The notes under the pieces were generated by a model. That model was not told where the DNA came from. It saw only the letters and a program-made list of their open reading frames with translations, and did not search any database. Position numbers and translations under genes: made by a program. 64,000 bases of DNA from assembly GCA_965204945.1 (NCBI GenBank), contig OZ242022.1, forward strand, positions 2,138,369 through 2,202,368. Reading direction: 5' to 3'. Of this stretch, positions 46,589-61,912 are shown in pieces. Origin of the DNA: Limisphaerales bacterium. Its GTDB lineage: Bacteria; Verrucomicrobiota; Verrucomicrobiia; Limisphaerales; AAA164-E04. How positions within the stretch are numbered: position 1 is the stretch's first letter; each line of letters starts with the position of its first letter.

Positions 46589-47491
46589 TCAATCCCCACC
46601 CATCCCCACCCAATGACGGCTCATAATATCGGACTGAACCAAAGTCGTGGCGCATCCGCAAAACGGATCCAACACAATGTCGCCCGAATTGCTGCTCGCC
46701 TTGATAATCCGCTCCAACAACGCCTGCGGCTTCTGCGTTTTTTGTCCCACTCGTTCTTTTGAGTTAGGGCTAATAATCGGAATGTCCCAAGTACTCCCTA
46801 CAACAAGATGACTGCTTGGCGTCCGCTTGATTGGCTTTCCCGATGCGTCTTTCTTTACCACTGTTTTTCCGTCTTCATCCTTTGCGCTGACATATTGGGA
46901 TGGGTTTGGCGTTAGATTGGGGACAAGAATGGGGTTGATTTTGGTCTTTTTGCTTTTTGCGTAGAACAGGATAGTGTCGTGCAATTTTGGGAAAGATTTC
47001 TTTGATTTGACTGTCCACCGGTTGTAATGCCACACGATTTCATTTCTAAAATTGTCTTTGCCGAAGATGGCGTCCATTAGGAGGCGCAGGTAGGCGTTGG
47101 CGCTAGGGTCGCAGTGCAGGTAAATGCTGCCGGTTTCTTTGAGCAGGCGGCGGCATTCAATCAAACGAGTGGCCATCATGGTCAAGTAGGCCTGCATTCC
47201 TTTGCCGTGAACTTGCCCTGCGGCGCGAGCCACGTCGTAGGCTTTTTGGTTTTGGTGCGCCAGCAAGCCAAACTCCACTTCCCGCAGGTCGTCAAACGTC
47301 CAGAAGTCTTTGAAAGAAGTTCCGCTCAAAGACTGGTATAGCCTTTTGCTGTTGAACGGCGGGTCGAGGTATATCAGGTCAATCGTCCTCGAATTCATCG
47401 CCCGCATTACGTCGAGATTGTCTCCGATGAAGAGCGTTCTATTCTTCCAATTTACCGCTGTAGCAATGACTGCCTTTTCTAAATTACTCAT
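46589..47491 (-). CDS. beta-class N6A/N4C DNA methyltransferase
   Basis: Motif IV LDPPFNS near the N-terminus and motif I VLDPFCGCATT near the C-terminus. Ends abruptly inside the conserved W.GI(D/E) tail. Confidence 0.85.
   Translation of the reverse strand: MSNLEKAVIATAVNWKNRTLFIGDNLDVMRAMNSRTIDLIYLDPPFNSKRLYQSLSGTSFKDFWTFDDLREVEFGLLAHQNQKAYDVARAAGQVHGKGMQAYLTMMATRLIECRRLLKETGSIYLHCDPSANAYLRLLMDAIFGKDNFRNEIVWHYNRWTVKSKKSFPKLHDTILFYAKSKKTKINPILVPNLTPNPSQYVSAKDEDGKTVVKKDASGKPIKRTPSSHLVVGSTWDIPIISPNSKERVGQKTQKPQALLERIIKASSNSGDIVLDPFCGCATTLVQSDIMSRHWVGMGGD
46593..46612 (-). repeat. perfect 10-bp tandem duplication (TCCCCACCCA x2 on the + strand)
   Basis: Read base by base. Removing one copy joins the methylase frame to the HNH frame. 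Confidence 0.95.
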
Positions 47492-50928: not shown

Positions 50929-51122
50929 AGCGACGACTAAATCACGCTGACAATCCACGTGGAAAGACAAAGCGAAACATTGCCGAATCTTCCCGCGTCG
51001 CAGGCGAAGTCTTACAGAGAAACCGCCCGCAGAACGCCCCGAAAAAGCGTTCGTCGAATTGTTGTGTTGTATAATCTCCAAGCACTCGGCCAAAAATCAG
51101 AAAAAACGAAAGACGAAACTTT

Positions 51123-52001
51123 ATGACGAAACTCATGCCAATAATTGCCGCCGGAGTGGTTGCCCTTTCCGCTGCATTCAATTGGGAAAGGATTCCCTTT
51201 GTCTGGATGGTCGGCTTTATTGTCTACGGACTCCTTCTCTATTTTCCCAAGAAACAAACGGAAACCGATGCCGAAAGACTGAATCAACTGGCCGAGCATT
51301 ATTATTTTGTCGGCTACATCGCCACCATCACCGGATTAGGCGGCGTTCTTTACAAGTTGGGCATGCGCGTCCAATCCAACCAAAATTTAGAAGAATTATT
51401 GACCCCAGATTTACTCAAACTAGGCGGTACCAGCGTTGGTTGCACTATCATCGGCTTGATCGGAATGAACGTTTTCCGCGCCAAAGCATTCAAACAAGAA
51501 CAAGAAGCCCGAAAACTCGACGCCGAACTCGACGAGATACGAACCCAAAACGTCGTTCACCAAATCGCCAAAAATTTTGAAAATTTTGAAAACCGAATGA
51601 AAGAACTCGAAAGCACCCGCATGGAAGAGTTTTCCCGCCTGATGGATGCTTCGGAACTTTCCAAAGTGCTGACCCAACTGGTCGGCGAAATTCAGGGCGG
51701 CGCCAAAGGTTTGGAAGACCTGCGCAAAGTTTCCAAATCAGCCTTCGGCGCAATCAGCCATTTAGAGAAAAAGTTGACCGGGATGGACGGCGCATTGCAA
51801 GGCATCGCCGAAGACTCTGACAAAGTGCAACAAAACTTCGCAACCATCGCCGATCAATCCGACCGCATAGAAACACTGGCAAGCCATTTAGAATCCGCCT
51901 CCAACTCGCTAAAAACACTGGGCGAAGACGGCAAATCCAGCGTCCAAGAACTGCGCGATCAATTCGATCTTCTCAGCGAAAATCATCAAACAAACAAATG
52001 A
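51123..52001 (+). CDS. 4-TM membrane protein with a ~170-aa coiled-coil tail
   Basis: Four hydrophobic segments (IIAAGVVALSAAF, VWMVGFIVYGLLLYF, FVGYIATITGLGGVLY, VGCTIIGLIGMNVF) followed by a heptad-rich tail. Confidence 0.6.
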   Translation: MTKLMPIIAAGVVALSAAFNWERIPFVWMVGFIVYGLLLYFPKKQTETDAERLNQLAEHYYFVGYIATITGLGGVLYKLGMRVQSNQNLEELLTPDLLKLGGTSVGCTIIGLIGMNVFRAKAFKQEQEARKLDAELDEIRTQNVVHQIAKNFENFENRMKELESTRMEEFSRLMDASELSKVLTQLVGEIQGGAKGLEDLRKVSKSAFGAISHLEKKLTGMDGALQGIAEDSDKVQQNFATIADQSDRIETLASHLESASNSLKTLGEDGKSSVQELRDQFDLLSENHQTNK

Positions 52002-52047
52002 GGAAACCCAAGGTTGGAAAGACAAAACCAACGCCGCCCACAAACGA

Positions 52048-52803
52048 ATGGACGACTTTATCGAAAATTTCAGCAACTTGTGCCACAAACTAAAAACATC
52101 CGCAAACAAAGAAATCGGCGACTTCTGCGCCGCCTTTGAAACCGCCTGCCACAAACTGAACAATTCCCTGCAAACCGCTGAAAACTTCGTTCAAAAACTA
52201 AGCGACGGCACCAACAAAACCGCCAACTTTTCCCAATCTTTGGAAAGTCTCACCGCCCAAACCGCCGAACACAACAAAGCCTTTGAATCCTTCAAAACCG
52301 ACCTGCAACAAACCGCAACCGCCTTGACCCAAAACATTCAAGAACTGCTCGCCCAATTCAAAACCCTCGGCGAACAAATCACCGACGCCTCCCAAAAAAC
52401 GCAGATTTGGAAAAACCAAACCAACGAAACCAGCCAAGAAATCCAGCACTTCGGCGAAAGCTTCCAAACCGCCTGCCAACAATTACAAGCATCTTCAGAG
52501 ACGGTAATTCGCTATGCGGACAGCCTGCAACAACATTTGAACGATCCAAACTGGAATTCGAAAATGGCCGGAAACTTTGTTGATGATCTTGCCCGGAGGA
52601 TAAATGACTTTGCCAAAAGAATAAGCGAAAGTTTGTCACCAATGTCCAACCTTTCCCAATCCTTGAAAGAAATGCGCGAAGGAACTGCTCGCATCAACGC
52701 AGAGTTGGAAAAACTGCGAAAAATGATCGAAGAAATCCCAGAACAAATTAAAGAACAAAAGGGCTTCTGGCAGGGATTGCGTCAAATGTTTAGCAGGAAA
52801 TGA
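52048..52803 (+). CDS. soluble all-helical coiled-coil protein
   Basis: Q/E/K/T-rich helical repeats and no TM segment. Lies 46 nt after the previous gene. Confidence 0.55.
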   Translation: MDDFIENFSNLCHKLKTSANKEIGDFCAAFETACHKLNNSLQTAENFVQKLSDGTNKTANFSQSLESLTAQTAEHNKAFESFKTDLQQTATALTQNIQELLAQFKTLGEQITDASQKTQIWKNQTNETSQEIQHFGESFQTACQQLQASSETVIRYADSLQQHLNDPNWNSKMAGNFVDDLARRINDFAKRISESLSPMSNLSQSLKEMREGTARINAELEKLRKMIEEIPEQIKEQKGFWQGLRQMFSRK

Positions 52804-52921
52804 TATTCCTCCTCATCAAATTAAAAAAGCTGAAGATGGAAGAGCGACCCATCATCCAAAAACGAAAAACACAATTGACTCAAAATCTATTAACCGTTAA
52901 CAATAACTTCTTTCCTTTCCG

Positions 52922-54106
52922 ATGAAACACAACCGCAACTCTCATAGCGGCTTTGGTCTGCCTCTTTTCATCTCATTCAACGAACTGGCTTGGTTGGCCG
53001 TCGTCGGCGTTGTCCTCATCGCCGCGCCGCAACTAGTCAAAGGGAAACAACAAAGCTCGAACTCGCAAGAAGAGAAGAAAGAACAACTACAACACCAAAA
53101 ACAAGAACCAGAACCCACTTTGACAGAGGAAGATAAGTTGCGCCGCCAACTCAAAGAAGCAGAGCAAGAATTAGCCGAAGCGGAAAATCAACATTCCAAA
53201 GCGGAGCAAAAGTTAGAAAGTAAAAATACCGAGTTGCTTAGAAAAATTGATACGCTCGAAAAGCGACTCAAAGAAACGAAGCAAGAATTGGCCAAAACAC
53301 AAGATCGACTCGAAGAGGCAGAGCAAAAGTTAGAAGTTGCGGAAAGCAAAAATGCCGAGCTGCTGGAAAAAATCAATACGCTTGAAGAGCAGTTGAAAAA
53401 CCGGGAACAGGAACTGAAATTGGCTTTGGCAGAGAAACACAAGTTGCACGACCAACTGAAAGAAATGGCGCCAAATCAGCCTGAAAGAATGGAGCAAGTA
53501 GTGCGCAAGGAACTATTAGGCTTGGAAGGAGAATTAGAATACGTCGGACTTTTGCTAGACCGCTCCTCCAGCATGAAAAACGACAACCGATGGGAAAAAT
53601 CCATTAAGGTTGTGGAAACATGGCTTCAGCACTTGCCCATAGAAAACTGCTTCCTGATCCACTATAATCACGAATTCAATACCTTTCCCGCCAATCGATA
53701 CCTTCCTGTTTCCGGCCCGAATGGGATAAGAAATCGAAAATGGCTAATTCAACACATTCAAGACGTCCAACCGGCCGGAGGCACTCATACTATTGAGGCG
53801 CTGGCAAAAGCCTATAAGGATCCGAATCTGCAAACCATCATTCTCTTCACTGATGGTGAACCAAGACTTTGGGACGAAAATTCACAAGGCCGACTCTCGC
53901 AAAACAAAACCGATGAAGGCAATTATCAAACGGGAAGAAGTGTCAGTAGAAACATGAAAGAAATTCTCCAGTTATGCCGCAATGAGAAACAAAGACAGGG
54001 AGTGACAGTGAACGTAGTTGCCATTGGAGATTATTTTGACGAAGAGTTTGGCGAGTTCCTCAGAAATGTGGCGAAGGAAACGGACGGCGCCTTCATCGGC
54101 CGCTAA
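52922..54106 (+). CDS. TM-anchored coiled-coil protein with a C-terminal vWA (MIDAS) domain
   Basis: TM segment LAWLAVVGVVLIAA; duplicated AEQKLE..ELL.KI.TLE..LK coiled coil. MIDAS residues DRSSSM, GGTHT and FTDGEP. Confidence 0.75.
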   Translation: MKHNRNSHSGFGLPLFISFNELAWLAVVGVVLIAAPQLVKGKQQSSNSQEEKKEQLQHQKQEPEPTLTEEDKLRRQLKEAEQELAEAENQHSKAEQKLESKNTELLRKIDTLEKRLKETKQELAKTQDRLEEAEQKLEVAESKNAELLEKINTLEEQLKNREQELKLALAEKHKLHDQLKEMAPNQPERMEQVVRKELLGLEGELEYVGLLLDRSSSMKNDNRWEKSIKVVETWLQHLPIENCFLIHYNHEFNTFPANRYLPVSGPNGIRNRKWLIQHIQDVQPAGGTHTIEALAKAYKDPNLQTIILFTDGEPRLWDENSQGRLSQNKTDEGNYQTGRSVSRNMKEILQLCRNEKQRQGVTVNVVAIGDYFDEEFGEFLRNVAKETDGAFIGR

Positions 54107-54231
54107 TTTTCTCTAATCCCACAATGGAAAAAAGACTGGAAAAGAAACCTCCTTCAATTCACAAACAACAACCGAAAAGAAAACCAAGAAACAAAAACCT
54201 TCTTCGCTTTGGTGGTGCCAAGCCTTCCCTT

Positions 54232-57225
54232 TTATTCCCTCTCCTTATCCGGCGAATCCTCCTTGCTTTCTTCATCCTTCTTAAAAGTTTCGTTGAGGAT
54301 TTGGTCGTGACTTTTCTCCATCTTTTTTTGTTTGTCGATGTCAGAAAGTTTGTCCACTCTTTCATTCATGCGCTGTTTTACTTCTGCTTCACCAAGGGCG
54401 CGGAGTTTCTCTTGAAACTGCTTAATCAAAGTCTGCTCGTCGTTTTGTTCAAGGTATTCGCGCAATTCCTTTTCGTCTAACGATCCCTTGCGCTTAATCA
54501 AGAGATGCTTATTCAGACCGTCGATAACCTGAACGAATACAATGTCTTCGTTTCTTTTCTCAAACGACTCAGGCGAAAGATCTAGTAAAGATTCTATCCA
54601 CTGGTGAAGATTCTCTAAAGATTCCTTACGTTGAAGGTTGAAGTAGTTTTCCCCGTGTTTATGGGTAAAATTAGTGCAGACCGGGGGATTTTCTTCGGAT
54701 TTTTCCAATTGTTCGCTTGCGTATTTACAAATGACGAAGTCGGAGATGGCCAGCCCTATCTCTTCCCGATAGATAAAAATGAAGTGATCTAATGGAGAGA
54801 ACTCTGATGTGAACTCTCTTCCTCCCGGCGCCTCTTTATTGGCAAGTAGGGACAATTCTTTGCCAGCCTGGGAATCTTTGCAGAAAATGAAGTTTGGCGA
54901 CTGCGTGGCCGCCAAACTCAGAAGATCACACCCGTTAATGATTTCTACGTGGGGAAAAGAGCTGCGGACAAGCAATGCAATATTAAGTTGTTTGAGGTCG
55001 GAGATGGCTTTTTTGCCGACTTGAAATTTGTCAGTCACCCCTTGGCTGATCTGGTCAAAGGTTTTGTCCACGCGGAAAACGAGGCGATCCGTATTTTGGT
55101 TTTTAAGAATCGACATCAGGGGCTCTCCTTTCAGAAACTCATCGCGCAATGACTTGATGTCGTAGGTCTTTATAATTTCAGCGACACCAAGTTCCACGTC
55201 ATCAACAATACTGGATGGTTCTCCCCGCGTAATAATCGACAAGTTGTTGGCGCTTGGAAGTTCTAACAGCTTTTCTTTTTGCATTTTGCAAGTGGTCCGG
55301 AAAAGTGGCAACCTACCACTTTGGGAGGCGATGTCTCTGGACAGTTTTTCCAAAAACAATTGGCAATCGGCAAGAATGCCGTGGAGATAGTGATCTCGAA
55401 TTTCGTTCAGCCGATCATTCGCCTCCCGTTGCCATTGATTCCAGACGACATTGCGAACGGTTTGCTGATATTCGCTCTCCACTTTGGTCCTTTTCTCTTT
55501 GGAAAAGATTCGTAGGAAAAGATCCCAATTTCGTTGTTTCCGGCGAATCCATCGTTTCCGGAAATCACCGGAGCCGTATTTGTTTAGCACCAAGTCTGAA
55601 GAAAAGGAAAATGGAGGAAGGTTTGCCGGAAGTTGCGCAATCGCAGTCTTTATTTTTTGAAGAATTCCCTGGATGTAGGTTTTCGTCTCCGCATTAGTGT
55701 GATCGTTCATGTAGCGGATCACGATTTTTCGGATGTCTTCTTTCAAGTCTTTGGCTACCAAAATCTTGGCATTGTCAATCCTGCGGTAATAATCTCCATT
55801 GGGGTTTAGACGGTCTCCCAGTGTATTGCTTCGGACTGGAAATCCTGCCATGAAGTTGTCGATCATTTCCCATCCAATAAGGCTGAATTCGGCAAATTTA
55901 CTTCCAAAAAGACCGTTGATTTCGGCCGGCAGATCAAGATTGACTTGGGCGTTTGCCACAGTGCCAATCAAGCTCCCTTGGGCTCGCTCGTAAGAAGCGC
56001 CCCAGTCATTCTGAACTCCGTCATCCGCTTTGTTGGGATCAATATCTGAATTATCAAGCAAACCATTAATCATGCGGATAGCAAGTTGCCGATTGATTGC
56101 CCGGGAGATGCGGTTTCGAGGATACCAGATAGCGGAAAGCCCGAAGGAACTGAAAGCGCGCATGTGGCCTTTATTATTGGGTTGGAGATAGCCTTCAACT
56201 TGTTTAAGGTTTACGCGGATCGCAGCTTTTTTATCGGCAAGCCCAGCTACAACTTCGGTAAAGAGGTTCATAGCGCACATTCGTCTGAGATCCTTTGGAT
56301 TATCCCCCTTAAATCCGCCATTTTCTTGGTTTTTCATAGATTGCAAATAGACCGTGTCAAACGGGGCGTCCAAAGTGTCAATTTCCTGACCGTCGGGGAA
56401 TTTTACATAATAGCGGCTTTTTTCTAGGTAATAAAAGTCGAGTTCACGTAGCGCCGTCCAGCAGTTAACGCTGGGGACTTTGTACTTTGGATCTTTGCTA
56501 TGAACATCGTCCATGACGGTGAAAAGACCGATGACTTCCGGACGACCTCCCTCCATCATAGCGCTCTCTCTTCGGATGCCGAGCAGTTCGCTGACGAAGT
56601 AGGCCACGTCGATAAAGGCGCCGCTGCAAGTGCCGCCGCAAAGGGTGCCGCAGATGTAGACCTTCGGTTGGATTTTAACGAGAGATTTCGCGGGAAGGTC
56701 AGTGCCGGGGTGCTTGTCTGGAAAATATTCCTCGCGCAAGAATTTGTTTGCGGCAAGAATATTACCCGCATCGTGAATTGCCTCAATGGACTCGATTAAT
56801 TCACGGCGAACCTTATTTTTCCAGTTTTTCCAGAGGCAGAGACGGCCGGCTTGCCGAAGGTTTCCAGCGCCGGCCTCGTAGCTTTTCTGCCCCCGTTCAA
56901 TGAGTCGATTGTCCAGCCAATCTTTCAGGCTGGAGTCTTGTCCATCGCTTCCCTTCATCTGTTGTTGGACGTTGTCCACGTCGGCAACGGTGATATGAAG
57001 AGGCTTAATTTCCTCATAAGGTTCTGGATTGTGGGGAATAAATCCGTCATCGGGCTCTTTATTCTTGTCCGTTTCGATAGCCAGATAACGAAAACAGGGA
57101 AGTCCAGCTCGTCCAAATTCTTCGAGCACGAATTTTCTCAGGTCTTGAAGAATTTCCCAGCCATTAGTGCCAAGCCCGATAAACAAGCAAGGCCTGATAG
57201 TGAATTTGTCGTTGTCTTCTGCCAT
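54232..57225 (-). CDS. 997-aa tubulin/FtsZ-superfamily-like GTPase (Tubulin_2-type) with a long helical C-terminal region
   Basis: T1-like FIGLGTNGWEIL and T4-like ICGTLCGGTCSGAFIDVAYFV (compare GGGTGSG of tubulin and GGGTGTG of FtsZ). Confidence 0.65.
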   Translation of the reverse strand: MAEDNDKFTIRPCLFIGLGTNGWEILQDLRKFVLEEFGRAGLPCFRYLAIETDKNKEPDDGFIPHNPEPYEEIKPLHITVADVDNVQQQMKGSDGQDSSLKDWLDNRLIERGQKSYEAGAGNLRQAGRLCLWKNWKNKVRRELIESIEAIHDAGNILAANKFLREEYFPDKHPGTDLPAKSLVKIQPKVYICGTLCGGTCSGAFIDVAYFVSELLGIRRESAMMEGGRPEVIGLFTVMDDVHSKDPKYKVPSVNCWTALRELDFYYLEKSRYYVKFPDGQEIDTLDAPFDTVYLQSMKNQENGGFKGDNPKDLRRMCAMNLFTEVVAGLADKKAAIRVNLKQVEGYLQPNNKGHMRAFSSFGLSAIWYPRNRISRAINRQLAIRMINGLLDNSDIDPNKADDGVQNDWGASYERAQGSLIGTVANAQVNLDLPAEINGLFGSKFAEFSLIGWEMIDNFMAGFPVRSNTLGDRLNPNGDYYRRIDNAKILVAKDLKEDIRKIVIRYMNDHTNAETKTYIQGILQKIKTAIAQLPANLPPFSFSSDLVLNKYGSGDFRKRWIRRKQRNWDLFLRIFSKEKRTKVESEYQQTVRNVVWNQWQREANDRLNEIRDHYLHGILADCQLFLEKLSRDIASQSGRLPLFRTTCKMQKEKLLELPSANNLSIITRGEPSSIVDDVELGVAEIIKTYDIKSLRDEFLKGEPLMSILKNQNTDRLVFRVDKTFDQISQGVTDKFQVGKKAISDLKQLNIALLVRSSFPHVEIINGCDLLSLAATQSPNFIFCKDSQAGKELSLLANKEAPGGREFTSEFSPLDHFIFIYREEIGLAISDFVICKYASEQLEKSEENPPVCTNFTHKHGENYFNLQRKESLENLHQWIESLLDLSPESFEKRNEDIVFVQVIDGLNKHLLIKRKGSLDEKELREYLEQNDEQTLIKQFQEKLRALGEAEVKQRMNERVDKLSDIDKQKKMEKSHDQILNETFKKDEESKEDSPDKERE

Positions 57226-57263
57226 AATGCTTTAAATAAAATGAAAAAATTCGTCTGTTCGGC

Positions 57264-59432
57264 TTAAAAAGTCTCCGGTATTATCTCCTCGGAAATGTCA
57301 ATAGTCAAGGTTCTTTTGGCGCCAAAATCATCCGTGATTTCGACCGAATCTGAAAACTTGAGCCAATGAGGTTTGCCGTCGTTTCCCGGCGAGAAAAAAC
57401 CAAGATGCGAATGCCGTTGGAAATAGCAACCCTTTGCGGGAATATCGCACACAAATTCATCGCCGGCGCCATCATTTGTCGCATCCGTTTGGCTCAGGTA
57501 GATTTTGTCCTGCATTTCCAAAACGAAAGTTTTCAACGGCTTGAGGTTTTGGCCGGCGTTGGGCTTGTTGTCTTTTTTCGACTTCGAAACTTCGGAGATT
57601 TCCACGCGCATTTTCTTGTTGGGCGGCACAGGCGGCGCGTTGCGGGCTTTTCTGATCTTTCCCCAAAATTTTGCCGAAACGAACAAGAGGAAAATTGCAG
57701 GAATCAGAATCCACCAGAAACGCTGCAACCAACCTTTTGGAGGCTCTGGACTAATGGCAATCAAAAGACTGGCCGAGGATTGCTCTTCGCCGTCGCCTTG
57801 CACGATTAGCGTAATGGTTTTGTCACCCGGCGTTTGGAAAGTGAATTCAGGATGTCTTTCCATGCTAGAACTTTCATCGTTGAAGTTCCACCGCCAAGAT
57901 TGAATCAAGCCGATGGACTCGTCCAGAAAGCGGACTGTTTGCCCCACTCCTATTTTAGAAGGGCTATCCAAACCAATCGCCGCTTGGGGAGGAGGAATGG
58001 GCGGAGGAGGAATAAATAAAGTTGGCGGCGACGGCAGAATAGTCAGGCTATGGATTTTGCTACGAATTTCTTGGCCGTTGGAAAGTTTGCCGACCAGTTG
58101 AACTCTAAAAGTCTTTGGATCATCCCCATCGTTTTCATATTGATGTTGCGGCGATCTTTCCGCGCTGGTTTGGCCGTCGCCAAAATCCCAGCGGAAGGAC
58201 ACAAAGTTGCCTTGGGACTCGTTGGCAAATTGCACAACTTGATTGTGATGGTATGTTTTTGGATTCGCTCGGAAATTCACAATGGCGGACGGTTCGCGGA
58301 CAATGAGAGTTTGTGGATCGGAAGGAAACCACTTGCCGTTTTCATTCTGCGCGGAAAAGACAACGGAAAACTCGCCTTCGGAAGCAAACTTCCATTCAAA
58401 ATCCAACTCCCTGCCTTTGATTTCGTCATCGATCTCCCACTTGTAAGCAACGGGATGTCCCAAACTGCGCCCGTAAAACCGGACGGATTGCATAGATGAA
58501 GGATTGAGGGGTTTCCAGTGGAGAACTTCGGAGCGGATCGAAGGCGGCTGATACGGATCAGAAACCTGAATAGTTACTTGCGAATGTTCTTGACCACCTT
58601 GCGCCCCTTCTACTTCAAGACGGATGGCATGCTCTCCGCTGGTTGTAAAAATGTGCTTTAAAACTTTGTTGGTAGAAACCGGTTGGCCGTTCACGCTCCA
58701 ACTATAAGTTTTGTAAATCGAGGAAGAGTTTTCATAAGCGATCATTTCCTTGCCAACACGAAGGCCCTTCGGCCGCCATTCAACGACCGGAGACAACAAA
58801 ATCTCAAAGTTGGGATCGTGTCTGAGGCGAAAACCGGAATGGTCTCCTATATCTCTCTGGGTTTTTACATCCATCTTGAAGTCGCCGAGTATGACGAGGT
58901 GACCTTGTATGCTCTTGCCGTCCACCGGAAAACCTTTCACAGCTTCATTGAAAGTGGGGACATCTTCATTCTCTTCGGTGTTTTGCCCGTCGGTGAACAC
59001 TCTTACCTGCACTGTTTGTCCGGGATTTTCGTTTGCATAGCGCGTGGCCACCTCCAATGCCTTGCGCAAAGTCGTCCACAAATGTGTCTTTCCAGTTTTA
59101 TGCGCTTCTGCTTCTTCATCGATTCCGTCGCACCAGACAAGCGCCGGCTGATGATCCAATTTGTTTCGGAAAATGAATTCGCGTTGCGATTGGATTCCAG
59201 AGTTAAACGAAACCAACGTGAGCCGCGATCCCAAAGGCAAGGCTTGAAGCCAGCTTTGTAGCGCATTCTGCACCGTTGTAATCCGATTCTGCGAATCGCT
59301 CGGAGAAACGCTTCTTGTCATCGACCCGGACGTATCCACCACAATGACATAATCCGCCGCTTGCAAAGACCCGCCGGCCCAAAACGCGAACGCCAGCGAC
59401 AACAACACTCTCAAAACAATTCGATACATCAT
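57264..59432 (-). CDS. secreted vWA domain, three or four PKD/Ig domains, a TM helix and a cytoplasmic tail
   Basis: Signal peptide; MIDAS VVDTSGSM..T..FTDGQ. PKD-like WSVNG.., FRWDFGDGQTS and WRWNFNDESS. TM segment WWILIPAIFLLFVS followed by a ~130-aa tail. Confidence 0.8.
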   Translation of the reverse strand: MMYRIVLRVLLSLAFAFWAGGSLQAADYVIVVDTSGSMTRSVSPSDSQNRITTVQNALQSWLQALPLGSRLTLVSFNSGIQSQREFIFRNKLDHQPALVWCDGIDEEAEAHKTGKTHLWTTLRKALEVATRYANENPGQTVQVRVFTDGQNTEENEDVPTFNEAVKGFPVDGKSIQGHLVILGDFKMDVKTQRDIGDHSGFRLRHDPNFEILLSPVVEWRPKGLRVGKEMIAYENSSSIYKTYSWSVNGQPVSTNKVLKHIFTTSGEHAIRLEVEGAQGGQEHSQVTIQVSDPYQPPSIRSEVLHWKPLNPSSMQSVRFYGRSLGHPVAYKWEIDDEIKGRELDFEWKFASEGEFSVVFSAQNENGKWFPSDPQTLIVREPSAIVNFRANPKTYHHNQVVQFANESQGNFVSFRWDFGDGQTSAERSPQHQYENDGDDPKTFRVQLVGKLSNGQEIRSKIHSLTILPSPPTLFIPPPPIPPPQAAIGLDSPSKIGVGQTVRFLDESIGLIQSWRWNFNDESSSMERHPEFTFQTPGDKTITLIVQGDGEEQSSASLLIAISPEPPKGWLQRFWWILIPAIFLLFVSAKFWGKIRKARNAPPVPPNKKMRVEISEVSKSKKDNKPNAGQNLKPLKTFVLEMQDKIYLSQTDATNDGAGDEFVCDIPAKGCYFQRHSHLGFFSPGNDGKPHWLKFSDSVEITDDFGAKRTLTIDISEEIIPETF

Positions 59433-59497
59433 AACAATAAAAACAATCAATTTACACTTTCGGCAACAAAACCACAGCCGGCAATGGCTTTGTTCGG

Positions 59498-61246
59498 TTA
59501 AATGCCGTCGGCGTGGGGCCAGATTTGGACAATCGCTTGCACTAATCGCTCGCTACGTTTCACAATTGTTGTTTCGTCCCATACTTCCGGAGCATTATCC
59601 AACAACTCTTTGTTGAGATACAATCCGCTGTGTTGGTGCAATGCTTTCTTTTTGTTTTCCCATGATTTGTTGGGGATAGCAAAATTCAATCTTTTGCTTG
59701 CCAGAGTTAAATTTCCAATGAAATCGACGAATCCATCTAAATTACCATTGGGGTTTACTGCAAAGCCTCCCTGCGGCAAAATACGTTCAACGGTTAGCTC
59801 GCTGGTATCGCCAAGCGGCTTTGCAGACATGGGTTTGCTTGTTGCGATGGCTTCAAAAACCATCATTTTCTGCGCTTTACTTCCGGGCATTGAAAAATTA
59901 GTGAGATAAGAAATCACTTCGTCGTCGTCGGGCCAGCGATTGCCTCCAAATTTCTTGTTCAAAAATTGGATTATGACTTTATCCGTTGGTTGACTTTTTT
60001 GCGCTTCCAAGGGTTTTGCCATATCAGTAAAAAGATTCTTCAGTCCTGTCCCGTATATTTTACACAGCATTCGCCGCACTAGATAGCTTTCCAATGCGCG
60101 AGCAATTCTTTGCCATTCGTCTTCGGAAACGTCGTTCGTGTAAAGCCACAGCAAGGGCGGCATGATTACGCCGATTTTCATCGTCTTAATTCGCTCTAGA
60201 AACAATGCTATTCTTTCTCCCGGCGGCTCGTCCTCCTTAATTTTTCCCGGCAACTTGTTCTTCTCAATTTTCCAATAAGCTAATCCTGATTCCTTAATGT
60301 CTTCTGCAACCTCTTCAATGTTTGGTTGGAACTGAATGTAGTTGCGAAACTCTTCCGCCGTACGATCAAAGGTAACGTATTTGCTGATGCGCATCATGAT
60401 CCAATAGTTTAGGAATCTGTCGAGGCGGATCTGAGAATCTTTCCCTTGTCCATCTAAAAAATGCCACCAGATATCCTCAAACATTCCAAACAGCTGCTCC
60501 GCCTTCTGCTCGTCGTCGATAACGTTGGCTTTGTACATTATCGTGCCTTTGATAAGATCGGCTTGGGTCAACGGTTTTCCGCGTGCATTAAGGGTTTCAA
60601 AAATGACGTACGGTTCTTGTCTGGGTGCCAAGATAATGGACACCACTTTTAACTGCTTGACGAGGGCTTTGTGCAAAGCCGTCGCTCTGACATCGACGTT
60701 TGCATGGCGGCTGACCCACTCGAGCACATTTTCATGGAAGTAGTTGTAAGCTTTTGTGATGTCGTGGGACTGATGCTCTAATTTAATTTCATCTCTAATG
60801 ACTGCCCGAAAAACTCGTCGGTCTCTGTTGGACTGGACAATTTTAGTTTCGTTGAGAGGGTCGTTCCCAGTTCGCTTTCGGTCATTGAGTAAAAGCTTGT
60901 CCAAGTTGAATTTTTTGGTATCGCTCAGCGATTTTTGAAACGCCTTTTGCGTGGCTTTGATCAAGAGTTGCAACGTCGTGAGCCTTTGCTGGCCGTCCAC
61001 TACAAAAATTTGGCTAACTTTGGCATCCGCCGATTTCATCGGTTGCAGAAGGATGGACCCCATAAAGTGAGGAAGTAAATCTTTTTGACGATATTTGAGG
61101 ATGCGATCCGCCATTTTGTGGGCGTCTTCCCATAATGGTTGCCATTGTTTTTCGCTCCACGCATAAGGGCGCTGGAACTGCGGAATGCGATAAGAAACGG
61201 AATCGTCAAACAGGTCGTCAATCCCTTGAATTTTTGCGTCCATCAT
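59498..61246 (-). CDS. DUF262 plus DUF1524 (GmrSD-like) protein
   Basis: N-terminal YRIPQFQRPYAW and VVDGQQRLTT. The C-terminal ..VERILPQ...IGNLTLASKRLN matches the DUF1524 layout but has Arg where the HxxP His is expected. Confidence 0.8.
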   Translation of the reverse strand: MMDAKIQGIDDLFDDSVSYRIPQFQRPYAWSEKQWQPLWEDAHKMADRILKYRQKDLLPHFMGSILLQPMKSADAKVSQIFVVDGQQRLTTLQLLIKATQKAFQKSLSDTKKFNLDKLLLNDRKRTGNDPLNETKIVQSNRDRRVFRAVIRDEIKLEHQSHDITKAYNYFHENVLEWVSRHANVDVRATALHKALVKQLKVVSIILAPRQEPYVIFETLNARGKPLTQADLIKGTIMYKANVIDDEQKAEQLFGMFEDIWWHFLDGQGKDSQIRLDRFLNYWIMMRISKYVTFDRTAEEFRNYIQFQPNIEEVAEDIKESGLAYWKIEKNKLPGKIKEDEPPGERIALFLERIKTMKIGVIMPPLLWLYTNDVSEDEWQRIARALESYLVRRMLCKIYGTGLKNLFTDMAKPLEAQKSQPTDKVIIQFLNKKFGGNRWPDDDEVISYLTNFSMPGSKAQKMMVFEAIATSKPMSAKPLGDTSELTVERILPQGGFAVNPNGNLDGFVDFIGNLTLASKRLNFAIPNKSWENKKKALHQHSGLYLNKELLDNAPEVWDETTIVKRSERLVQAIVQIWPHADGI

Positions 61247-61273
61247 AAAAATGCGTCTCTTTTACGGTTTTTC

Positions 61274-61876
61274 TTAAAAAAGTGTGGATTTGTCTTTGGA
61301 AATGATTTCCACTTTTAAGCGAATTCCAAGATGCTGGGCAATTTCATCGAGCTGCTCTTTCTTTTTTCGAGTGCCTGAATAGAGGCAAATATACCATCCC
61401 TGGATTTTTTGTTGCGCGAATGTTTTACCGTCGCGGCGTGGGGCAGAATCGATCAAAGGAACTCCATTCCCGTGAAGCCCTAGTTTGCGGACTTTGTCGA
61501 TTCCGATCTTTTGGATGGTTTCGACAAAGGTATTCCTCGCGGAGTTTCTTTCAATTCTCTCTCCGTAGGGAAACGTCACTCTCAATTTGGTTTGAGGCGC
61601 GTTTGGGGGTCTGTAAATTTTAGGCGGCGGATCATCTTCTGGAGGATCCTCAAGAATGTCGATGCCGTCGATCCATTCTTGGCGCAGGGCGTTCACACGG
61701 GTTTGGAAGGCTTTGAGGTTCTTGCCGCGGTCGAGAAGAACTTGGCCTTTCTCATAATCCGCGTTCATGGAGGCTTGCGTGATTTGTTTCGTGATTTCCT
61801 GATTGGCTTTGTCCAACTCTTCCATGACCAGCTTGAAAGCTGCGGCGACACTGTCTTTGTTTAGGTGTTCGTTCAT
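61274..61876 (-). CDS. hypothetical protein (N-terminal helical region, P-rich linker, C-terminal alpha/beta domain)
   Basis: 200-aa ORF lying 27 nt upstream of the DUF262 gene. No motif recognised. Confidence 0.5.
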   Translation of the reverse strand: MNEHLNKDSVAAAFKLVMEELDKANQEITKQITQASMNADYEKGQVLLDRGKNLKAFQTRVNALRQEWIDGIDILEDPPEDDPPPKIYRPPNAPQTKLRVTFPYGERIERNSARNTFVETIQKIGIDKVRKLGLHGNGVPLIDSAPRRDGKTFAQQKIQGWYICLYSGTRKKKEQLDEIAQHLGIRLKVEIISKDKSTLF

Positions 61877-61912
61877 GTTTGTTTGATGCGGTGTTTTTGG
61901 CGGTTGGCAAAC

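Follow-up and report, generated by a model that had tools for sequence, protein, structure and literature searches.

The 64,000-nucleotide (nt) stretch of a Limisphaerales bacterium genome analyzed here (GenBank assembly GCA_965204945.1, contig OZ242022.1, positions 2,138,369 to 2,202,368 of the forward strand; hereafter, the window) carries on its minus strand, at 54232..57225, a gene for a tubulin-like protein; its open reading frame (ORF) starts with ATG and translates into 997 amino acids (aa). We assign this protein with near certainty to FtsZl1, the branch of the tubulin/FtsZ superfamily represented by the Pfam family Tubulin_2. The explanation of its role that we favor, and consider probable when taken as a whole, is that this FtsZl1 protein serves as a guanosine triphosphate (GTP) switch at the membrane in a setting of biological conflict. 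Considered separately, the mechanism of a GTP switch at the membrane is one that we infer and to which we give even chances; the conflict or anti-phage setting, as opposed to cell division, is read from associations seen mostly in relatives and stands slightly short of even chances. An earlier note on this DNA had proposed a tubulin-like protein of an unusual kind. The tubulin interpretation is right and the claim of unusualness is not: the family has been known since 2010, and it contains a Limisphaerales clade with a partner set of its own.

In a Pfam scan the protein matched PF13809 (Tubulin_2) with E = 7.3e-46 (157.5 bits, with a cut-off of 27), aa 14-385 being aligned to positions 1-354 of the 356 in the model; by this span the N-terminal domain has ∼385 residues rather than the ∼330 estimated earlier. 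The same scan found no match to PF00091, FtsZ_C or Tubulin_C and no domain beyond PF13809, and the PADLOC and NCBIfam models produced no match to the protein. PF13809 corresponds to FtsZl1, a group of FtsZ-like proteins to which Makarova and Koonin gave this name in 2010 (Biol Direct 5:33, PMC2875224; PMC9871819). They described proteins of ∼1000 aa that begin with an FtsZ-like nucleotide-binding domain, not alignable past helix H5 and enlarged between T1 and T4 by large inserts specific to the family; an extended coiled coil and then a mostly helical C-terminal domain follow, and a vWA protein is usually encoded alongside (PMC2875224). We found all three marks of the family: a full-length match with a high Pfam score, an architecture of ∼1000 aa (N-terminal domain, helical middle and a C-terminal domain of its own) without FtsZ_C or Tubulin_C, and an adjacent vWA gene. 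The size, which had been noted as more than twice that of tubulin or FtsZ, is thus not unusual; a length of ∼1000 aa, the missing C-terminal domain and the helical extension are what define FtsZl1 (PMC2875224). The distinction from the bacterial tubulins BtubA/B, made in the earlier note, holds, as those have PF00091 and Tubulin_C and only ∼430-450 aa. As in other FtsZl1 loci, the gene has housekeeping genes nearby, in a genome that should not require it for division.

A word-indexed sequence search returned 122 homologues, all with PF13809 and with lengths of ∼950-1150 aa. This search pre-selects candidates by shared 5-residue words, a possible bias for the Cys-containing loop considered below; an index-free HMMER search with aa 1-400 of the tubulin-like protein as query, used to re-test the form of this loop, gave 1520 cluster representatives at E ≤ 1e-3, 479 at ≤ 1e-10 and 107 at ≤ 1e-30. 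The nearest relative in a named genome (88% identity) is on the chromosome of a Limisphaerales (Verrucomicrobiota) metagenome-assembled genome (MAG).

A full-length AlphaFold 2 (AF2) model, built on a 58-sequence family alignment, had a mean predicted local distance difference test score (pLDDT) of 87.5 and a predicted template-modeling score (pTM) of 0.79. When the model was compared with the PDB by Foldseek, CetZ2 (4b45) ranked best (E = 1.6e-5) and 21 matches had E ≤ 1e-3. The best 50 matches were all to CetZ (CetZ1 included), tubulin, FtsZ of several species or BtubA, the latter at rank 46 only, with a probability of 1.00, ∼350-400 aligned columns and a TM-score of ∼0.5 on FtsZ and CetZ targets; among predicted viral structures, phage FtsZ and tubulin ranked best. 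In the predicted structure, then, the first ∼385 residues adopt the tubulin/FtsZ nucleotide-binding fold (aa 14-385 by the Pfam span and Foldseek; 56071..57186, minus strand). Direct sequence comparison gave a different result. A 58-member family profile run by HMMER against all PDB sequences returned coiled-coil noise only, with no FtsZ or tubulin, and hhalign of the N-domain profile with E. coli FtsZ was not significant (P = 0.32), its local alignment falling on the T4/S5 region. One could argue from these two results that the motif matches are fortuitous and that the fold is an unrelated one; however, with the PF13809 score, with 50 of the best 50 structural matches in the tubulin superfamily and with three nucleotide-binding loops conserved in the right order, we give this idea a negligible chance. 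No different fold emerged from either the Pfam alignment or the structural comparison, and the N-terminal domain is tubulin/FtsZ-like as had been proposed. What links the protein to tubulin is the Pfam family, structure prediction and the published HHpred result, not direct sequence similarity.

The ∼650 residues that follow had been described as helical. This is correct for the predicted helical stalk or bundle of aa 397-654 (55264..56037, minus strand; secondary structure by DSSP on the AF2 model), which includes a 61-residue helix at aa 576-636, but in the part further on the AF2 model has a mixed alpha/beta region (∼aa 660-960). The latter belongs to a family-specific C-terminal alpha/beta domain, aa 660-981 (54283..55248, minus strand), as delimited in the AF2 models. 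A separate model of aa 640-997 (pLDDT 84.5) gave no PDB match below E = 1 in Foldseek (best E = 1.0); weak matches to RidA and MotB-C were judged not credible. Together with the Pfam scan, this supports the earlier note, which had recognized no C-terminal domain of FtsZ or tubulin. In the 58-sequence alignment a conserved motif of this region lies around ..LDHF..FY.E..GLA; the conserved residues of the domain include P758, Y819 and E821, with Y819 invariant. Hydrophobicity analysis of the sequence found no hydrophobic segment or predicted transmembrane (TM) helix in the tubulin-like protein, and we therefore place it in the cytoplasm.

Both motifs pointed out earlier, without a strand being given, are present in the minus-strand frame and were correctly assigned as T1 and T4; a conserved T3-like loop comes in addition. 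The T1-type loop FIGLGTNGWEIL (aa 15-26; 57148..57183, minus strand) follows the aligned pattern G17-x-G19-[TS]-x-G22; among the 58 aligned homologues G19 and G22 never vary, and 57 keep G17. The T3-type loop AGAGNLRQAGRLCLW (aa 118-132; 56830..56874, minus strand) has the form GAGxxRxxGR with G119, R124, G127 and R128 invariant; compared by eye with the translated E. coli locus, it resembles GAGANPEVGR of E. coli FtsZ. The T4 signature loop GTLCGGTCSGAFIDVAYF (aa 193-210; 56596..56649, minus strand) is a Cys variant of GGGTG[ST]G. Its pattern in the 58 sequences is G193-[TS]-L-x-G197-G198-[TS]-x-[SG]-G202, then D206; G193, G197, G198, G202 and D206 are invariant, and there is little or no variation in the central GG[TS] and the final G. 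The same can be said of a further segment, G233-x-F-T...D239, and a conserved P288-F-D-x-V-Y-L-x-S...N299 resembles the S6/T6 region. The protein thus shares with FtsZ, CetZ and tubulin the fold of the GTP-binding domain and the order of T1, T3 and T4. Unlike them it lacks PF00091, has large insertions between T1 and T4, reads CGGTCSG for GGGTG[ST]G, carries ∼600 extra residues, has no recognizable T7 residue or activation domain and shows no similarity detectable by HMMER. FtsZl1 is probably the most divergent branch of the superfamily.

The two Gly-to-Cys changes in the T4 loop had been taken as unusual and as a possible cause of altered nucleotide handling. In the first homologues CGGTC[SG]G is almost universal. 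When the form of the loop was tabulated by a regular expression, which matched 92 of the 117 representatives that were new in the index-free HMMER search, CGGTCSG was again the commonest (34), followed by CGGSCSG (10) and CGGTCGG (9). In the HMMER set loop position 1 may also be V, S, L, H, I, T, Y, F, A or G, and position 5 may be G, A or S; Cys is seen at both of these positions, at either one alone or at neither, with no strict covariation. More distant members have TGGTASG or YGGTCSG. The pattern G[TS][LF]CGGT[CG][SG]G, counted with one genome per species, was found in 274 relatives from Verrucomicrobiota, Poribacteria, Myxococcota, Cyanobacteria, Deinococcota and other phyla. Judged by these sequences, this branch of FtsZl1 usually has the Cys loop. 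The conservation of CGGTCSG in orthologues, which the earlier note had put forward as a check, is borne out in the first homologues; in the HMMER set CGGTCSG is the commonest form and both Cys positions vary. Since position 5 accepts small residues only, it would pack against the phosphates, and position 1, which accepts bulky ones, would point away.

One could still see here an exceptional oversized tubulin in which the two changes bring unusual nucleotide handling, for instance redox or metal control, all the more as C196 and C200 are conserved in close relatives and a third conserved Cys, C130, is located in the T3/H3 region. However, hundreds of members from many phyla have the Cys loop as their commonest form, the positions of C196 and C200 are variable, C130 is replaced by A, and size and architecture are those of the family. 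Since the two loop positions vary without strict covariation, neither Cys would be an obligatory metal or disulfide ligand, and the same holds for C130. As a peculiarity of the 997-aa protein this idea is largely refuted, and we think it very improbable. Jointly with the explanation that we favor, we expect that the Cys residues of the T4 loop are tolerated, family-typical small-residue substitutions and not a special redox or metal site, a view that has a better than even chance of being right.

After the H7-like helix (L313..F322..K333..R337) no acidic residue is conserved, only N/D339 and N350, and in the model a single strand and a single helix (aa 358-390) take the place of the four-stranded domain of FtsZ. 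No FtsZ/tubulin C-terminal (activation) domain and no catalytic T7 acidic residue is recognizable; the authors of the 2010 study drew the same conclusion on the T7 and C-terminal activation elements from sequence (PMC2875224). These features would suit a static scaffold or adaptor loaded with guanine nucleotide, a pseudo-enzyme that has lost assembly-coupled hydrolysis and is held at the membrane by its partners. Such an idea would also be in line with the observation that nucleoside triphosphatase domains of the cell-division type (MinD/ParA-like, FtsK) are often predicted to be inactive in related conflict systems (Kaur et al., PMC7159879). Yet T1, T3 and T4 are strongly constrained, with many invariant Gly and Arg residues, down to ∼20% identity, which argues for a working nucleotide site, and catalysis could come by a different route from the invariant R124 and R128. 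We regard a static scaffold as distinctly unlikely.

The genes around the tubulin-like gene form an island of ∼10.7 kb (51100-61900) with a guanine-cytosine (GC) fraction of 0.44-0.49 compared with 0.55-0.57 in the flanks. The island is bordered on one side by housekeeping genes for glyoxalase, LpxD and PanD and on the other by one for a GFO/IDH/MocA oxidoreductase. The low GC of the island suggests horizontal acquisition. Within the island the tubulin-like gene is the last of a co-directional minus-strand string, with gaps of 27, 47 and 38 nt between successive genes. The string starts with orf200 (61274..61876, recognized by tblastn conservation), which codes for a 200-aa protein without a known domain; it had no match in Pfam or NCBIfam and an insignificant one to PADLOC CARF2 (E = 0.008). 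Next comes a gene for a GmrSD-type type IV restriction enzyme (59498..61246), identified by Pfam GmrSD_N and GmrSD_C and by the PADLOC models Orf5, HEC-06 and mREase_IV. The third gene (57264..59450; Pfam VWA_2, PKD_4, PKD and PKD_3) codes for a vWA-PKD membrane protein. This has a signal peptide, a vWA domain whose metal ion-dependent adhesion site (MIDAS; DTSGS) is intact, three PKD domains, a TM helix at aa 575-593 and a cytoplasmic tail of ∼135 aa. A scan for promoters and terminators gave counts at chance level.

From the other side the tubulin-like gene is faced by a convergent plus-strand pair. The first gene of the pair (51123..52803), recognized by tblastn synteny and by TM and motif analysis, would code for a protein in which 3-4 TM helices are combined with a long coiled coil (TM-coiled-coil gene); the second (52922..54106; Pfam VWA_2) codes for a protein with one N-terminal TM helix, a coiled coil and a C-terminal vWA domain with MIDAS DRSSS (TM-coiled-coil-vWA gene). 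Pfam matches of the coiled-coil ORFs to EzrA, DUF948 and the like were below the cut-off and were attributed to coiled-coil composition. In the window the TM-coiled-coil gene is split into 51123-52001 and 52048-52803 by a 1-nt frameshift near 51972-51985; the cause is one extra A (GAAAAT here versus GAAAT or CAAAT in relatives). The gene also lacks one internal repeat of ∼135 aa. Relatives have a single ORF, of 563-696 aa in four of them and of 486 aa in L012. With its upstream vWA-PKD gene and the convergent pair the Limisphaerales clade differs from the FtsZl1 loci described in 2010, and it has none of the OmpA-family protein, P-loop GTPase and protein kinase named there; membership in the family is not excluded by this.

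As a side observation, an N6/N4 DNA methyltransferase gene is located at 46589-47491 (minus strand), ∼3.6 kb from the island, and in the syntenic relative L001 further genes of methyltransferase and Mrr-like type are close by, so that restriction-modification genes are abundant in this region.

Most of this arrangement is conserved. A vWA-PKD gene followed by the Tubulin_2 gene, which faces the coiled-coil-vWA and TM-coiled-coil genes, was kept in relatives with tubulin-like proteins of 88, 78, 47, 41 and 40% identity. The arrangement appears again at 35-39% identity, with a small membrane protein of 110-120 aa encoded before the tubulin-like gene and a 320-aa protein after it; at 31% identity the vWA-PKD gene and the small membrane protein alone are retained. 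The TM-coiled-coil-vWA gene was found in L001, L003, L012, L013, L014, L093 and L094. The small membrane protein (108-121 aa, 3-4 TM helices) is encoded directly before the tubulin-like gene in many relatives, including Poribacteria (L093:7611-7964, L094:7614-7970, L095:7626-7952, L006:3067-3432 and L007:8640-8975). It is absent from the window, where the gap between the vWA-PKD and tubulin-like genes is 38 nt; the cytoplasmic tail of the vWA-PKD protein was tested as a possible fused copy of it and proved not to be one. By tblastn, orf200 has matches in L001, L013 and L014 and is conserved at the head of the string down to 44% identity. GmrSD, in turn, is found at this place in close relatives only. 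In L013, a Pedosphaera MAG, orf200 lies directly upstream of the vWA-PKD gene with no GmrSD between them; because of this, GmrSD looks like a separate defense gene inserted into the string.

Some relatives carry the tubulin-like protein in fusion with other domains. Protein P0014 (1548 aa, 40% identity) combines a whole tubulin-like protein with TIR and an AAA_21/AAA_15 ABC ATPase; the fusion is present on two independent metagenome contigs (L004:4442-9088 and L005:1010-5656) and has MC6/CTD10/DUF2326 (ABC-3C type), TIR_2 and DUF4365 genes as neighbors. An N-terminal fusion to HSDR_N_2, a restriction-endonuclease-like domain, was seen in eleven relatives (P0094-P0104) and also in P0162; one of these genes (P0101; L008:9001-12348) lies beside XPB-helicase/DUF790, AAA_35, HEPN-nucleotidyltransferase and Mtase-Mrr genes. 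Neighbors in other relatives include NACHT-FGS, CHAT, caspase, trypsin, RHS and type VI secretion system (T6SS) lipase genes. The distribution of the family is patchy, and copies are present on megaplasmids.

According to the explanation that we favor, the tubulin-like protein would bind GTP and use it as a switch for self-assembly or oligomerization at the inner face of the membrane, where the vWA-PKD protein, through its cytoplasmic tail, and the coiled-coil partner could tether or trigger it. The module would in this way couple events outside the cytoplasmic membrane, sensed by the MIDAS-bearing vWA domains, to a cytoplasmic response. The evidence leans to a conflict setting because of the low-GC island with GmrSD, the TIR/ABC-ATPase and nuclease fusions, the defense-type neighbors and the megaplasmid copies. 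Makarova and Koonin proposed in 2010 a membrane-remodeling cytoskeleton, in which FtsZl1 would form filaments via its own C-terminal regions and, with the vWA and membrane partners, bend or remodel the cytoplasmic membrane, as in the formation of vesicles or compartments in a member of the PVC (Planctomycetes-Verrucomicrobia-Chlamydiae) group. This is the published hypothesis for FtsZl1 (PMC2875224); all partners in the module are membrane-anchored, and every characterized member of the superfamily forms filaments (authors' response, PMC2875224). However, a patchy family with low-GC islands, megaplasmid copies and TIR, ABC-ATPase and nuclease fusions shows the pattern of a conflict system and not of a housekeeping cytoskeleton, and the elements of filament contact in FtsZ (T7 loop and C-terminal domain) are not identifiable here. 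We therefore consider membrane remodeling to be unlikely.

Several points weigh against a GTP switch in a conflict setting as well. GTP binding, hydrolysis and assembly are all inferred for the FtsZl1 family, and our literature search found no experimental paper on it; hydrolysis coupled to polymerization in the manner of FtsZ is doubtful, as no acidic residue of T7 type is conserved past the H7-like helix. Neither the family profile nor hhalign, as described above, connects the protein with FtsZ or tubulin at the level of sequence. The defense-type fusions and neighbors occur in relatives, not at this locus, and PADLOC has no model that matches the tubulin-like protein. The adjacency to GmrSD is common to close relatives only and hence is one single observation. 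Finally, the gene of the coiled-coil partner is frameshifted: it may be a pseudogene in a decaying module, or the frameshift may be a homopolymer error in the assembly.

Neighborhoods with tubulin-domain and vWA genes have been listed among conflict systems by Kaur, Burroughs, Iyer and Aravind (2020, eLife 9:e52696; PMC7159879), who described such systems around GTPases, tubulin-domain proteins, vWA and HSP70, the tubulin-centered theme being restricted to firmicutes and actinobacteria. The module in the window is similar to their GAP1-N2/DO-GTPase systems in that a tubulin-domain protein with a helical C-terminal extension occurs with membrane vWA proteins that have beta-sandwich repeats, and in its predicted role near the membrane. 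It differs in that the repeats are PKD, not FNIII. Among the ORFs at 44.7-63.3 kb no DO-GTPase, GAP1 or HSP70 gene was found with Pfam, which has GAP1 models; without a DO-GTPase or GAP1 gene the window does not represent a system of this kind. In one relative only (L006), a GAP1-M protein is encoded two genes downstream.

Another type of association became visible when ORFs were called and clustered in 83 non-redundant Tubulin_2 loci; these loci were selected by the Cys-loop pattern, and the partner fractions given here are not a census. The commonest partner, in 47 of the 83 loci, is a ZorA-like protein of ∼600 aa with a TM region of MotA/ExbB type and a long coiled coil. Its gene has the orientation of the tubulin-like gene and in most of the 47 loci starts within ∼350 nt of the end of the latter; such genes are found among loci L007, L016-L023 and L040-L089 (for example, L007:1165-3938 and L040:13231-15531). 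The match to PADLOC ZorA3 (E = 2.5e-17) includes the TM region. A ZorB-like/OmpA protein is also present in 43 loci (E = 1e-21), and HSP70-type proteins occur in 16 of the 83. In RefSeq the ZorA- and ZorB-like neighbors are labeled 'hypothetical protein' and 'OmpA family protein'. The 2010 study took the OmpA partners as outer-membrane proteins and did not mention MotA, MotB, ExbB or TolQ (PMC2875224), and our literature search found no paper linking ZorAB-like or Zorya-type motors to tubulin-like proteins. An assignment of a cyanobacterial upstream protein (cluster 2) as vWA was not supported by hhalign, despite its DxTGS motif.

The convergent pair in the window has the layout of such a pair: a multi-TM protein with a coiled-coil tail is followed by a single-TM protein with an extracytoplasmic domain. 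In the TM-coiled-coil protein the helices ..YFVGYIATITGLG.. and ..CTIIGLIGMN.. are in register with the TM hairpin of ZorA-like proteins, with weak support from hhalign (P = 0.0025 compared with 0.15 for a reversed control), and one ortholog has a weak Pfam MotA_ExbB match (E = 0.5) in the same region. A deeper profile was intended for the N-terminal 136 aa of this protein; the homologue search gave one match only. The TM helix of the TM-coiled-coil-vWA protein (aa 20-30) contains SFNELAW, invariant in orthologs at 32-69% identity. It resembles the transpore motif F-T-D-L-M of MotB/ExbD/ZorB with Glu replacing Asp, and aligns, again weakly, with aFTDLms of ZorB-like proteins (hhalign P = 0.009 compared with 0.077 for the control, with sequences pre-cut around the motif). 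The likeness of the pair to ZorA/ZorB is weak and not statistically established by these sequence comparisons. Matches of the coiled-coil proteins of the window to ZorA, JetC and LmuB were set aside as noise of coiled-coil composition, since they are confined to the coiled coil.

No gene of the module had a PADLOC match to ZorC, ZorD, ZorE, ZorF or ZorG. The relation to Zorya, an anti-phage system in which a ZorA/ZorB motor is combined with cytoplasmic effectors, consists of a ZorA/ZorB-like pair in other loci of the family and of the same layout with weak in-register motif similarity in the window; unlike Zorya, the module has no ZorC-ZorG, and in its B-like protein the place of the OmpA-like domain is taken by a coiled coil plus vWA. 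The idea of a motor in the window has a precedent in TM-tethered vWA proteins that carry a TolR-like transpore helix and have TolQ-like partner genes; Verrucomicrobia are one of the groups in which they are reported (Mol Biol Evol 2025, msaf138; PMC12204202). Common to both are an inner-membrane vWA protein, an acidic residue in a single N-terminal TM helix and an adjacent gene for a small multi-TM protein. Here, in contrast, the residue is Glu rather than Asp, a long coiled coil separates the TM helix from vWA, and the partner is not recognizably TolQ; the paper reports no tie to a tubulin-like protein (PMC12204202).

One could speculate that FtsZl1 proteins are the cytoplasmic arm of Zorya-like machines of envelope surveillance, with a stripped-down motor in the clade of the window; we hold this whole scheme possible and on balance doubtful. 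A proton-driven motor of the ZorA/ZorB type (5:2), with a long cytoplasmic coiled-coil tail, would sense a disturbance of the envelope and would trigger GTP-dependent assembly of the tubulin-like protein, which would then act as an effector or recruit one; in some relatives the effector, TIR with an ABC ATPase or a PD-(D/E)xK nuclease, might be fused directly. In the Limisphaerales clade the A subunit would consist of 3-4 predicted TM helices and a coiled-coil tail, and the B subunit would have a transpore helix with Glu, with a periplasmic coiled coil and vWA instead of the OmpA-like domain.

For this gene alone the finding is of little significance: since 2010 the family has been covered by a paper and a Pfam model, and the Cys loop is normal for it. 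The family itself is worth experiments. It comprises ∼1500 cluster representatives at 50% identity from many phyla, has no solved structure, and is without the elements that other members of the superfamily use for polymerizing and for GTP hydrolysis. The genomic links are of three kinds, namely ZorAB-like motor genes, which accompany over half of the loci sampled, the fusion of some relatives to TIR, ABC-ATPase or nuclease domains, and defense-island settings; the ZorAB-like association is the most interesting lead of the analysis. If these links hold up, FtsZl1 would represent a GTPase of the tubulin fold that is engaged in membrane-coupled immunity rather than in cytoskeletal work.

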